A stretch of DNA of 16,547 nucleotides from Escherichia phage JLBYU27: the sequence record OK272475.1, one strand, 5' to 3'. Shown one piece after another: positions 892 to 13,822 of this stretch; within the stretch, counting starts at the first letter, position 1; every line of letters begins with the position of its first letter. The position numbers and the translations under genes were made by a program. A model generated the notes under the pieces. It searched no databases. It saw nothing but the letters and a program-made list of their open reading frames with translations, and was not told the DNA's origin.

Positions 892-921
892 TTGCATTGC
901 GGATGTTGGTTGCATTATATT
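892..921 (+). promoter_or_regulatory. sigma70-like promoter for the plus-strand clamp-like gene
   Basis: -35 TTGCAT (892-897), 18 bp spacer, -10 TATATT (916-921); leader GGTTGCGCACCAACAACGAGGAA contains the RBS. The same -35/-10 hexamers and a near-identical leader recur on the minus strand at 10679-10735. Confidence 0.4.
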
Positions 922-950
922 GGTTGCGCACCAACAACGAGGAAATGACA

Positions 951-1463
951 ATGATTAAAGTTAACTATGCCGATCTTAAAGCCGCTATGATGTGCGCCGC
1001 AACTAATGACGTGCGATACTATCTGAACGGTGTATTTTTCGACGAGAAAGGATTCATCGTGTCCACCGACGGACATCGCTTGTTCTGCGGGTCCGCGGTT
1101 GTTCCCGAAGGTGAAAGTAAAATAGTAGCAATTAAAGGCCGCTTACCTACTAAATTCGAATATTGCAACATAGACGGCACCTCCGCTGCGTTCTTTGATA
1201 GTAAAGACGTATTAATCGGTACCATACCCGTAGAGATCATAGACGGCCGATTCCCAGACTGGCGTAGATTTACGTCTTTCGACAGCGCTAAAGTGGAGGC
1301 TATAGGGTTTGCCGGGGTGTACCTGTCCGACGCCTGCAAAATTGCTAAATTGTTCGACCGTAAGTTTGATAGCTTAAAACTGGAATTTCAGGGAGTAGAC
1401 AAGGGGGCACGTGTGCTGTTCAAAGGCGGTGCCTTCCTTGTTATCATGCCGATGCGCTTGTAG
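951..1463 (+). CDS. truncated DNA polymerase III beta sliding clamp (DnaN) homolog, domain II plus shortened domain III (170 aa)
   Basis: ATG at 951 with GAGGAA 7-8 nt upstream. Protein contains DVRYYLNG, TDGHRL and DGRFPDWRR and ends in VIMPMRL, matching conserved E. coli DnaN motifs as recalled (DVRYYLNG, TDGHRL, DGRFPDYRR, C-terminal VVMPMRL). No equivalent of DnaN domain I. Opposite strand to all neighbours, with its own promoter and a terminator. Confidence 0.75.
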   Translation: MIKVNYADLKAAMMCAATNDVRYYLNGVFFDEKGFIVSTDGHRLFCGSAVVPEGESKIVAIKGRLPTKFEYCNIDGTSAAFFDSKDVLIGTIPVEIIDGRFPDWRRFTSFDSAKVEAIGFAGVYLSDACKIAKLFDRKFDSLKLEFQGVDKGARVLFKGGAFLVIMPMRL

Positions 1464-10740: not shown

Positions 10741-10945
10741 ATTAATCACGCGTATGAAAAAGTTGATCGCTATCTGCTGAAACTGCAAACTGCATTTTTC
10801 ACTTTCCATTCTGCATCGCGCATTGGTTGCCGAGTTCATCGCCGACCGCAATTTGCATCATGTTGCCGTGGATTATGCAATCCCGGATTTTATGCAGTCT
10901 CAGACGAGGGGGGTGACAGACCCCCCGTCTAGTCTGAAAGACTGG

Positions 10946-11210
10946 GGTGCTGTCCCGCTGTCCCGATCGGCTAAACCCCGCGGCAGCACTGGCGGGGACA
11001 GGGTGCTGTCCCGCTTTGTCCCGCCCCTGGTCTGTCCCGCTTTTTGTCCCGCTTAGTTTATGCACGAAAACAGAATAGATATTCACATTTTGGGGGTGGG
11101 ACAGATCGGGACAGCACCCCTGTCCCGTTTTTAATTTATGCAATGTTGGTGGGTAAATATGCAGTTTTTAGAGGTGCGGGATAGAACGGGACAAAACGGG
11201 ACGTCCCGCC
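10946..11210. repeat. iteron-like array of at least 12 copies of TGTCCCGC / GCGGGACA in both orientations
   Basis: Forward copies at about 10951, 10959, 11007, 11017, 11033, 11045, 11121; inverted copies at about 10993, 11097, 11106, 11176, 11186; a perfect 12 bp palindrome CGGGACGTCCCG at 11197-11208. Longer unit GGTGCTGTCCCGC recurs three times. Interspersed AT-rich TTTATGCA motifs. One hairpin CGGGACAG-caccc-CTGTCCCG is followed by TTTTT. Confidence 0.8.
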
Positions 11211-11968: not shown

Positions 11969-12694
11969 TCAAGACAGCGCCTCGACCAAGTCCTTACGGT
12001 AAATAACCATATCGGACTGCATGGTCAGCGTGGACTCCACCGTCTCCACGTTGTTTACTTCAGACGATGGGATCTTCCGGAAAGACACCTTAGCCGGGTA
12101 AATGCGGATCTCACCTTTGCCGCTTGCCGCTGCCGGGTTAGTGAACTTAATCACAGTGGTTTTCTGTGTGTCGTCCAGGTCTTCCAGAATCGGGCGGATC
12201 GGGTCTTCTTCGTCGTGGGTGAAGGTGTAAGTCTGGACCAACGGGTTTTTCGTGGTGTTCAGACTGATCGCGGTATTCACCTGCAACGGCTGGAAGGTAG
12301 TAGTCTGCTGGTCGCCACCAGACACGGCGACGTTAGTGATATACGGGAAGTCGACAAAGCTCGACACCTTCACCACCTCACCCGGTGTTCCTGTGCTGAA
12401 AGCGCCGGTAGGGTATTTGGTTACGTCTTTAGTATCGAAGCGCGCCAGTGTAACGTCGTTAGTCGCCACTTTACCCACGATGAACGCGCGGTTCAGCGCA
12501 CGGACCCACGGGGTTTTAGTGAACATAACCACGTCACCAACTTTCAGGCCATGAGAAGCCGCGCAGGTGATAACGCAACCTTTCGTAAGACCAGAGATCG
12601 ACGCGGCGGCGTTGGTAGCTGCCGTAACGGCGATACCTTCGCTTAATACGGACCCAATCTGCACGCTGGATCCATTCGGTAACTGGTAGCCCAA
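11969..12694 (-). CDS. major tail protein (lambda V-position, 241 aa)
   Basis: TTG start at 12694 preceded by AGGAGG with 5 nt spacing; an in-frame stop lies just upstream so no ATG alternative exists. Ser/Thr/Val-rich protein followed by a terminator and the G/GT chaperone pair. Confidence 0.6.
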   Translation of the reverse strand: MGYQLPNGSSVQIGSVLSEGIAVTAATNAAASISGLTKGCVITCAASHGLKVGDVVMFTKTPWVRALNRAFIVGKVATNDVTLARFDTKDVTKYPTGAFSTGTPGEVVKVSSFVDFPYITNVAVSGGDQQTTTFQPLQVNTAISLNTTKNPLVQTYTFTHDEEDPIRPILEDLDDTQKTTVIKFTNPAAASGKGEIRIYPAKVSFRKIPSSEVNNVETVESTLTMQSDMVIYRKDLVEALS

Positions 12695-12749
12695 AATATC
12701 CTCCTAAATCAATAGATTACAGTATTTGCAGCCTGAGACATTTCAGGTC

Positions 12750-12778
12750 TTGACTAATCATACCACCAACGGTACTAT
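12750..12778 (+). promoter_or_regulatory. sigma70-like promoter for the plus-strand HNH-like gene
   Basis: -35 TTGACT (12750-12755), 17 bp spacer, -10 TACTAT (12773-12778); GGAG RBS at 12801 and ATG at 12810. Confidence 0.4.
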
Positions 12779-12809
12779 CCACAAAAATCGTTAATCAACT
12801 GGAGCGGAT

Positions 12810-13403
12810 ATGCGTAAAGGCATTCTTTTCGAAGGCATGACATTTAGAGGCGTTACTTTGTTGCGTAAAGGGCCAGGCCTTAAGTGGTTCTGTTCTTGCC
12901 CCGTATGCGGAAGCGAGACACTTCGCACTAACGGCGCACTATTGGATTTTATGCGAGGCGAAACACTGCGCTGGGTATGTACTTGTTTCGGCAAGAAATC
13001 TCGACACGGAATGACGGGGACGCCAACAATGATTACATGGGAAGGTATGATTCAGCGATGCCACAACCCCAATGCGACTAAATACGAAATATATGGCGGT
13101 CGAGGGATTACGGTGTGTGACCGCTGGCGAGTATTCAAGAACTTCCTGGAAGATATGGGCTTGCGGCCCGCCGGAGCAACCCTTGATAGAATCGACAGTA
13201 ACGGCAACTATGAGCCAGGTAATTGCCGGTGGGCATCCCAAAAAGACCAAACCGAAAACACTCGTAGGATTGTCCGAGTTATATATGAGGGGCGTGAATA
13301 TTGTCTTAAGGAAGCGTGCAAGGCGGCGGGCGTGAATTATGACACTATTAGAAAGAAATGGAAAAAAAGCGGGGAAATGTTCCACCGCTTTGAGATGATT
13401 TAA
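12810..13403 (+). CDS. HNH/AP2-family homing-endonuclease-like DNA-binding protein with N-terminal Cys-rich zinc-ribbon-like segment (197 aa)
   Basis: Contains the W..M..RC.NPN...Y..YGGRGI.VCDRW..F..F..DMG ... LDRID..GNYEP.NCRWA motif block that I recall from phage HNH/AP2-type homing endonuclease-like proteins; N-terminal CSCPVCG ... CTCFG. Opposite strand to the flanking tail genes; its stop overlaps the stop of the convergent U-like gene (TTAA). Confidence 0.55.
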   Translation: MRKGILFEGMTFRGVTLLRKGPGLKWFCSCPVCGSETLRTNGALLDFMRGETLRWVCTCFGKKSRHGMTGTPTMITWEGMIQRCHNPNATKYEIYGGRGITVCDRWRVFKNFLEDMGLRPAGATLDRIDSNGNYEPGNCRWASQKDQTENTRRIVRVIYEGREYCLKEACKAAGVNYDTIRKKWKKSGEMFHRFEMI

Positions 13404-13822
13404 GCGCAACAGGTGTAGGGGACTGTAACCACGATGCGGGCGCGATCAACGTCCTCAACCACTGAACTGGTGTATGGCGCGTCCTGAAGCTGGAATGCAG
13501 CGCCGGAAATCTTTACCGTCAACCACTTATCCGACGTAGCGATGGCGTCCGCCAGTTCGCTCGCGTACTGTGTACCCGTGCCTGCAGGGAACACCACGGC
13601 AACCTGATATACGCCTGCATAGATTCTCCCCTTTTGCTGGAGGCCCACAAACTGGGTCGGGGCCGGTAGCAGGTACGGCTCCAGGTAGACACCACTCCCG
13701 TTTGCGTGGTCCCCTTGCACGTTCTCCCAGTTAACCTTGATCGGCCGCGGGCTTGTGCTTAGGCTCGCCGATAACTCTTCTACCACGCTGTTAAGCGCTT
13801 TGCGGATTGCGGTATTGCTCAT
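13400..13822 (-). CDS. putative tail terminator / tail completion protein (lambda U-position, 140 aa)
   Basis: ATG at 13822 overlapping the upstream stop (TAATG); size and position immediately upstream of the major tail gene. Assignment by synteny only. Confidence 0.4.
   Translation of the reverse strand: MSNTAIRKALNSVVEELSASLSTSPRPIKVNWENVQGDHANGSGVYLEPYLLPAPTQFVGLQQKGRIYAGVYQVAVVFPAGTGTQYASELADAIATSDKWLTVKISGAAFQLQDAPYTSSVVEDVDRARIVVTVPYTCCA

Follow-up and report, generated by a model that had tools for sequence, protein, structure and literature searches.

The window analysed in this work is a stretch of 16,547 nt from Escherichia phage JLBYU27 (OK272475.1; all coordinates are 1-based positions on it), and the element in question is an endonuclease-like gene inserted between two of its tail genes. 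In DNA, the window is 91–95% identical to siphophages of the Dhillonvirus group that infect E. coli and Shigella (StarDew, PEC14 and HK578, for example), and its genes lie on the minus strand nearly throughout. The late operon runs from the major capsid gene through the head-tail genes to the tail terminator, the major tail protein and the tail assembly chaperone, and the endonuclease gene (12810..13403, plus strand, 197 amino acids, ATG start, TAA stop) is located between the tail terminator and the major tail protein. It is flanked on the left by the major tail (tube) protein gene (11969..12694, minus strand; Pfam Phage_tail_3, E 7e-33) and on the right by the gpU-like tail terminator gene (13400..13822, minus strand; Pfam Phage_tail_terminator_5, E 7e-16), and its stop codon overlaps that of the terminator gene as TTAA (13400-13403). 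An earlier note on this DNA had described a free-standing endonuclease-like gene on the opposite strand at this place, the only plus-strand gene of the tail cluster, with its stop overlapping that of the convergent U-like gene; the position, the PHROG matches (PHROG 3377, E 5e-47) and the fact that this is the sole plus-strand open reading frame (ORF) with homologues in the tail cluster bear out this description.

Since the protein has at least 7,961 homologues and the alleles found at the terminator/major-tail junction are under purifying selection, with a ratio of nonsynonymous to synonymous substitution rates (dN/dS) of 0.09–0.14, 12810..13403 is a real gene. A likely ribosome-binding site, GGAG, can be read from the sequence at 12801..12804 (plus strand), 5 nt before the ATG. 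Further upstream lies a candidate sigma-70-like promoter, TTGACT-17-TACTAT (12750..12778, plus strand), which reaches a consensus score of 9/12 in a region that has three such sites compared to 1.6 expected. The promoter pair is kept in the close alleles L005 and L002, in the latter with the -10 element improved to TATTAT, and the exact sequence of the promoter region had no match in IMG/VR.

The gene is part of a cassette of about 710 bp (12695..13404) that stands in place of a 61-bp spacer separating the terminator gene from the major tail gene, as delimited by the breaks in homology to 147 GenBank relatives. The 4.5-kb surroundings were matched by 158 GenBank phage records, 143 of which cover 84% of the query, and all 30 records among the matches listed align in two pieces that skip the endonuclease gene. 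GenBank homology ends at about 12697 (40 of the 147 records, sampled evenly by rank) and resumes at 13405. At the right junction (13400..13404), which contains the overlapping stops, the terminator gene is altered only in its last codon and stop, from GTC TGA in StarDew to GCT TAA in the window. The cassette DNA matched no Escherichia phage record, even with sensitive blastn, the gene is found in none of about 150 GenBank relatives among the Dhillonvirus phages, and a search of the whole StarDew genome with the family profile hidden Markov model (HMM) revealed no copy. Thus, the gene is present or absent at one locus among otherwise collinear relatives, as expected of a free-standing homing endonuclease gene, and the empty sites that the earlier note had predicted do exist.

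The 61-bp spacer (2182-2242 in StarDew, L001) is almost invariant in nine diverse empty-site phages, although they differ by about 10% in the coding DNA on either side of it. The spacer of the empty-site Dhillonviruses holds a small GCGC...GCGC hairpin, and carriers of the cassette lack the whole spacer. One pairwise alignment matched window positions 12720-12770 with the spacer of empty sites, but this resemblance was dismissed as noise, since no GenBank relative matches beyond about 12697. The repeat search found neither terminal inverted repeats nor a target-site duplication at the cassette ends, which rules out an insertion sequence or transposon. A location within an intron or intein is ruled out as well, because the gene is intergenic and the Rfam scan of 12500-13600 (E<=1) gave no match and thus no recognisable intron or ribozyme.

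The exact 197-amino-acid protein is absent from a large protein collection, which does contain alleles of it. Besides the window, seven metagenomic loci carry the cassette, always at the terminator/major-tail junction and in two phage lineages. The endonuclease is 96% identical to that of the window in L005 (a 1.2-kb contig), 82% in L002-L004 (44-kb Dhillonvirus-like contigs), 65–66% in L043 (2 kb), 61% in L044 (4.4 kb) and 54–55% in L045 (2.3 kb). In all of these the gene is on the opposite strand and its 3´ end overlaps the end of the terminator gene. L055 is a further carrier at the junction and belongs to the L045 lineage; L057 begins inside the cassette and contains its left end. A protein-guided search of IMG/VR found no further carriers, only distant relatives in unrelated contexts, at most 60% identical over partial matches. 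With alleles at the same junction ranging from 96% down to 54% identity, the recent acquisition suggested earlier is an oversimplification.

The divergence of the endonuclease alleles does not track that of their flanks. Between L043 and the window the endonuclease is about 65% identical, but the terminator is 89% and the next gene 98.5% identical; between L045 and the window the values are about 55% for the endonuclease, 35% for the terminator and 31% for the major tail protein. The terminator gene of the window is closer in DNA to that of the empty-site phage StarDew (98.8%) than to that of the carrier L005 (90.7%), and still the endonuclease gene of L005 is 96.6% identical to that of the window. 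L002 (5001-5594) is a mosaic, with 64 window-like N-terminal residues followed by an L043-like core and C-terminus. The region upstream of its ORF is 95% identical to the window and the ORF itself only 76% identical in DNA, because the alleles recombined at the domain boundary.

The insertion also changed the start of the major tail gene. Its start codon is ATG in all ten empty-site loci read (nine Dhillonvirus relatives and L056, an empty site of the L045 lineage with a 51-bp spacer), and this ATG is missing from all eight carriers. In every carrier the conserved spacer is deleted and a putative ribosome-binding site is supplied by the cassette. Three carriers (window, L005 and L002) have a TTG after AGGAGG, in the window at 12692..12694 and 12700..12705 (both minus strand), the AGGAGG being the presumed ribosome-binding site. 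The other five (L043, L044, L045, L055 and L057) have an ATC that lies 6 nt beyond TAAGGA, and no canonical start precedes the conserved N-terminus in them. Translation appears to begin at these TTG and ATC codons, since an in-frame stop is located shortly upstream in all carriers and the N-terminal residues have been kept by synonymous changes. Gene callers have shortened the major tail genes of the ATC carriers by about 35 to 56 residues, and L043 and L044 contain an in-frame mini-ORF, ATG-xxx-GGC-TAA, which ends four codons before the ATC.

Directly behind this start the major tail gene has been synonymously recoded (12635..12691, minus strand), a tract defined by its excess of mismatches to empty-site phages. 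In pairwise comparisons with eight empty-site phages, the first 30 nt of the gene in the window show 9–10 mismatches every time (Fisher p between 4e-6 and 5e-3), while the remainder of the gene differs by 5–13%; apart from the start codon, all of these changes are synonymous. In the comparison with StarDew, 16 of the 45 mismatches fall within the first 60 nt. Among themselves, empty-site phages differ by 2.7% in the first 30 nt compared to 9.8% over the remaining gene. Synonymously recoded first codons are found in all eight carriers. We infer that the tract marks a candidate target that has been rendered immune to the enzyme, a co-conversion event, or the two combined. The second lineage shows the same presence/absence polymorphism, with L045 and L055 as carriers and L056 as an empty site. 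L045 has many close relatives by its major tail protein (88–93% identity), L056 among them, whose N-termini read MAFQLPNGS, MAGFQ or MASFQ, whereas the protein of L045 begins with (I)GYQLPNGS, the Dhillonvirus form, instead of AF, AGF or ASF. The simplest reading would be that the cassette reached this lineage from a Dhillonvirus-type donor and brought the first codons of that donor along. Together, the tract and the GY N-terminus are suggestive of flanking co-conversion or target recoding beside the insertion.

An AlphaFold model of the protein (mean predicted local distance difference test score, pLDDT, 87.5) contains three modules. The first is a small N-terminal beta-domain with a zinc ribbon (residues ~10-60; 12837..12989, plus strand) formed by C30, C33, C57 and C59, and the Cys-rich N-terminal ribbon recognised earlier is indeed well conserved, with the first three cysteines invariant and C59 present in 58 of 59 family members. 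The second is a nuclease core with a PacI-like beta-beta-alpha-metal fold (residues 62-152; 12993..13265, plus strand) that ends in strand, loop, strand and helix and has H66, C84, C103, D126-R127, Y134, N138, C139 and N150 as key residues. The third, a beta-hairpin with a helix-turn-helix (residues ~155-190; 13272..13379, plus strand), is presumably a DNA-binding module, as its secondary structure, Foldseek matches to the DNA-binding domain of I-TevI and to Fis, and weak helix-turn-helix Pfam matches in relatives suggest. The best Foldseek match was I-HmuI, which was marginal (E 0.07). C84, C103 and C139 are near-invariant and could form a second zinc site, perhaps with H66.

The earlier note had assigned the gene to an HNH/AP2 type and had proposed a profile HMM search for HNH, AP2 and zinc-ribbon domains, the lack of any HNH or AP2 hit speaking against the assignment. 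Pfam scans were set to E<=10 for the protein and E<=1 for 58 relatives, with the HMMER filters hiding most matches above about 0.1. The 197-amino-acid protein matched neither a family of the HNH clan (HNH, HNH_2 to HNH_5) nor AP2 (PF00847), and neither was among the matches listed for the relatives (25 of 61 families), which showed only weak zinc-ribbon and helix-turn-helix matches below the curated cut-offs. NCBIfam and the PADLOC defence models did not match the protein either. The HNH label comes solely from PHROG families annotated as 'HNH endonuclease', which match strongly (E down to 5e-47). By the refuting condition of the note itself, the HNH/AP2 assignment as worded therefore fails. 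AP2 falls altogether; HNH holds at the level of the fold, since the beta-beta-alpha-metal fold places the protein in the HNH/His-Me finger superfamily. The earlier picture is thus correct in its outline but not in its domain labels.

The family is very large: when 1.84 billion cluster representatives (50% identity) were searched with its profile, 197,166 were retrieved as members at E<=1e-3, and 82,351 were still retrieved at E<=1e-30. It is scattered over unrelated phages and unrelated gene contexts. Some relatives in Acinetobacter phages adjoin MazG-like genes; an identity of the family with 'group 23' of Jablonska et al., unannotated proteins beside MazG genes, was considered and dropped as unconfirmed. 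Many members are long and contain 2–11 tandem profile matches (P0121-P0270; P0128, for example, has 895 amino acids and 11 stretches), and some of these tandem members repeat the zinc-ribbon module alone. One IMG/VR contig has two separate copies of the family (L010 and L025).

The position of the catalytic histidine at the end of strand 1 is occupied by an arginine, R127, in all 59 family members. At first sight this is suggestive of a dead active site, but a known enzyme has the same arrangement. In PacI a loop tyrosine stands in for the missing catalytic histidine of the His-Me finger (PMC5714182), the metal is held by an aspartate and an asparagine (PMC4081073), and the catalytic residues have been given as 'H, DR, CxxCN' with the tyrosine after DR (PMC11529989). 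Because H66, R127, Y134, N138 and N150, together with D or E at position 126, are conserved in 59 of 59 members, the arginine is best explained as the PacI arrangement. PacI (PDB 3M7K/3LDY; His-Me finger group 20 of Jablonska et al. 2017) shares with the 197-amino-acid protein the D-R pair instead of D-H where strand 1 ends, the tyrosine in the following loop, the helix asparagine, the upstream histidine and a cysteine-rich, presumably zinc-stabilised structure. The helix asparagine N150, which may contact the metal, and the asparagine in the loop or strand 2, N138, are also what the HNH/His-Me finger superfamily would call for. The two differ in that PacI is a homodimeric restriction enzyme of 142 residues that cuts TTAATTAA, with two Cys4 zinc sites and the motif CxxCN in its helix, whereas the phage protein has an EQxxN helix, a separate N-terminal zinc ribbon (CxxC...CxC) and a C-terminal helix-turn-helix, and is encoded by a mobile cassette. 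Searches of the PDB sequences with the family profile or the core sequence did not retrieve PacI at E<=10, giving only chance-level matches. Taken as an incomplete match, these features point to a nuclease core that folds like PacI, an atypical, tyrosine-using enzyme of the HNH superfamily.

We consider it fairly likely that the insertion represents a free-standing homing endonuclease cassette of a PacI-like class. Most likely it is still active, or was so until recently, and specific for the terminator/major-tail junction of Dhillonvirus-like phages. The data show how the locus is built, that the cassette is present in some phages and absent from others, that it keeps to one site in different lineages, that its protein is under purifying selection, and which fold and conserved residues this protein has; cleavage, the target position, the timing of expression and homing are inferred. 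Transcription of the gene would probably start at its own sigma-70-like promoter and run opposite to the late structural operon. In the enzyme, D126 and N150 would hold the catalytic metal and loop Y134 would replace the usual histidine, with R127 at the histidine position. Upon co-infection of a cell by a carrier and a cassette-free relative, the enzyme would cut or nick the genome of the relative in or beside the conserved spacer, with the area where the major tail gene begins as the most likely target. Recombinational repair off the carrier genome would then copy the cassette in. Carriers would be immune through the loss of the 61-bp spacer and the recoded first codons of the major tail gene. 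Since the lost spacer carried the ribosome-binding site of this gene, the cassette would bring a replacement ribosome-binding site and start codon.

Several points weigh against this explanation. The canonical HNH models do not match the protein and the general-base histidine is absent; the placement of Y134, D126 and N150 and the putative second zinc site are predicted from residue conservation and the modelled fold. We found no report in the literature of a biochemical test of, or of DNA cutting by, any member of the family, and the one PacI-like phage enzyme tested in vivo, from a survey of lactococcal Skunavirus phages, is not among the two reported to lower plating in the passage cited here (PMC12724721). 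The promoter proposed earlier as the gene's own is a consensus match in the window, and in the most distant alleles the pair falls below the same threshold. In addition, the age and divergence of the carrier alleles would also be in line with a long vertical inheritance in which the cassette was kept for a different advantage, and phage mosaicism could give discordant divergences without homing.

Two other explanations we hold to be equally improbable. The protein might be a domesticated, catalytically dead DNA-binding protein, a former nuclease that has become a regulator, for instance of late or tail gene expression at this junction. His-Me fingers that have lost catalysis and retained DNA binding are known, such as SMAD MH1 (PMC5714182), and the arginine at the histidine position and the missing Pfam HNH match would be in line with such a fate. 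A role that benefits the phage would also fit the strong purifying selection on old alleles at one locus, as well as a cassette that alters how translation of the major tail gene is signalled and has a hairpin resembling a terminator on the late strand. A dead enzyme would, however, not be expected to keep the D/E-R pair, the loop tyrosine, the asparagine and the upstream histidine invariant in 59 diverse members. Moreover, the gene is dispensable, as it is missing from about 150 isolated relatives; its family is scattered over unrelated phages and gene contexts, and its allele divergence at this site does not track the flanks. The earlier suggestion that the gene might moonlight in packaging or regulation found no support.

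Alternatively, the nuclease might be active but kept mainly since it benefits the phage, by marker exclusion of co-infecting relatives or by blunting host defence, with homing being secondary. Marker exclusion is a known by-product of the free-standing endonuclease genes of T4, and the purifying selection and the persistence of diverged alleles could be explained in this way. According to recent reports, phage homing endonucleases can raise phage fitness against defence systems (bioRxiv 10.1101/2025.09.07.674715; PMC13096335). For the cassette described here, the protein has no match among the PADLOC models, the data contain no link to a host system, and the rarity of the gene among isolates argues against a strong general benefit. 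This explanation is also compatible with homing and chiefly adds a benefit on top of it. Finally, that the cassette is an inert passenger, picked up in a single illegitimate recombination event, then passed on vertically and rearranged by phage mosaicism without any activity of its own, is highly improbable: Dhillonvirus genomes are indeed mosaic and the identities of the flanks to different relatives vary gene by gene, but a dN/dS of about 0.1 shows a protein under selection, the cassette has the same ends and junction in a second lineage, in which the tail proteins are only 31–35% identical and close relatives have empty sites, and the recoding is concentrated at the junction.

A homing endonuclease cassette at this locus resembles other phage systems to different degrees. 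The I-HmuI/HNH_3 homing endonucleases, some of which contain AP2, have the same lifestyle and the same combination of a nuclease core with a C-terminal helix-turn-helix, and LDRID..N..N of the 197-amino-acid protein can be aligned by eye with D74-H75..N96 of I-HmuI as given in PMC12724721. Unlike I-HmuI, the family has an invariant arginine in place of the catalytic histidine, and none of its 59 members has HNH_3 or AP2 among the Pfam matches listed. The seg and mob genes of T4-like phages are likewise intergenic endonuclease genes that are present in some relatives and absent in others, and such free-standing genes spread by cutting of the gene-free allele and co-conversion of the flanks (PMC2790892, PMC2330249). 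The enzymes of these genes are GIY-YIG or canonical HNH endonucleases whose cleavage has been shown experimentally, whereas the JLBYU27 enzyme is PacI-like and known from its sequence and a model. In the Skunavirus survey, two of 268 free-standing genes were classed as PacI-like by HHpred; they are variably present and share one insertion location in the morphogenesis module, but are rare there (2/268), and the comparison with them is one of class (PMC12724721).

The closest counterparts have been described in mycobacteriophages by Arsenault et al. 2025 (PMC11855218), who reported a 'hidden HNH' insertion in Pacc40 gp60 and the free-standing genes Tiff81 gp75 and Sashimi gp74, superposed the fold on PacI, noted the names 'AP2 domain-containing protein' and 'HNH endonuclease', and called the HNH assignment uncertain. 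Because Tiff81 gave a tblastn match of 42% identity to the 197-amino-acid protein and gene 60 of Pacc40 a 71.5% DNA match to its core, these genes belong to the same family. They have also been proposed to be homing elements, likewise without biochemistry. They differ in their hosts and in their sites, which are beside or inside a DNA methylase gene, with the Pacc40 copy lying out of frame within the gene, whereas the JLBYU27 cassette is intergenic, on the opposite strand, and supplies the translation signals of its neighbour.

A few features of the window lie outside this argument. A second variable slot for genes on the opposite strand is located at 955-1462, without similarity to StarDew. 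It contains an ORF (897..1463, plus strand) whose product of 188 amino acids weakly matches the beta clamp of DNA polymerase III in its central domain (E 6.5e-5, short of the Pfam cut-off); its counterparts at this slot are a gene with an Nmad5 domain in L002 and an unrelated gene of 269 amino acids in StarDew. The window behaves as a circle, as its ends, 1 and 16547, are contiguous in relatives (6829/6828 in StarDew). About 27.8 kb of the reference (StarDew 11823-39657) with the tape measure, tail tip, fibre and replication genes is absent from it. The break lies at 10890-11085 with overlapping flanks, and StarDew has a direct repeat of 198 bp, 84% identical, at exactly these two places. The missing part is due either to an assembly collapse across the repeat or to a deleted mini-genome.

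Free-standing homing endonuclease genes are routine in phages, and in this respect the finding is ordinary. The family, though very large, has no Pfam or NCBIfam match for the 197-amino-acid protein, and its database names are inconsistent ('HNH', 'AP2', 'hypothetical'); a PacI-type, tyrosine-dependent active site has so far been studied in one restriction enzyme only. The locus is a clean natural test system, with many empty-site phages, laboratory isolates such as HK578 among them, and at least eight carrier loci in two lineages, and its precise boundaries and short recoded tract suggest where the cut might be.

The most unusual feature is that the cassette swaps the ribosome-binding site and the ATG of an essential neighbouring gene, and the major tail protein is among the most abundant proteins of the virion. 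In the window, the cassette would also place a terminator-like hairpin and candidate antisense transcription between the tail genes. The hairpin, an inverted repeat followed by a U7 run (13362..13391, late-gene strand; fold -14.2 kcal/mol, z -3.1), resembles an intrinsic terminator and lies directly 3´ of the stop of the terminator gene, thus between two late genes; downstream of it on the same strand is a promoter-like TTTCCA-17-CATAAT with an upstream TG (13364..13336). It is possible, though on balance we doubt it, that the cassette has in this way gained control of how an essential gene is expressed and is more than a selfish passenger. If so, a major structural protein would be translated from a functional ATC start codon, the region of the start codon would lie within the recognition site, so that the loss of the ATG would be the price of immunity to self-cutting, and a simple deletion of the cassette would be lethal to the phage, anchoring it in an addiction-like manner. 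The change from ATG to TTG or ATC in every carrier offers a concrete, testable case of a mobile element reshaping the translation initiation of an essential gene.

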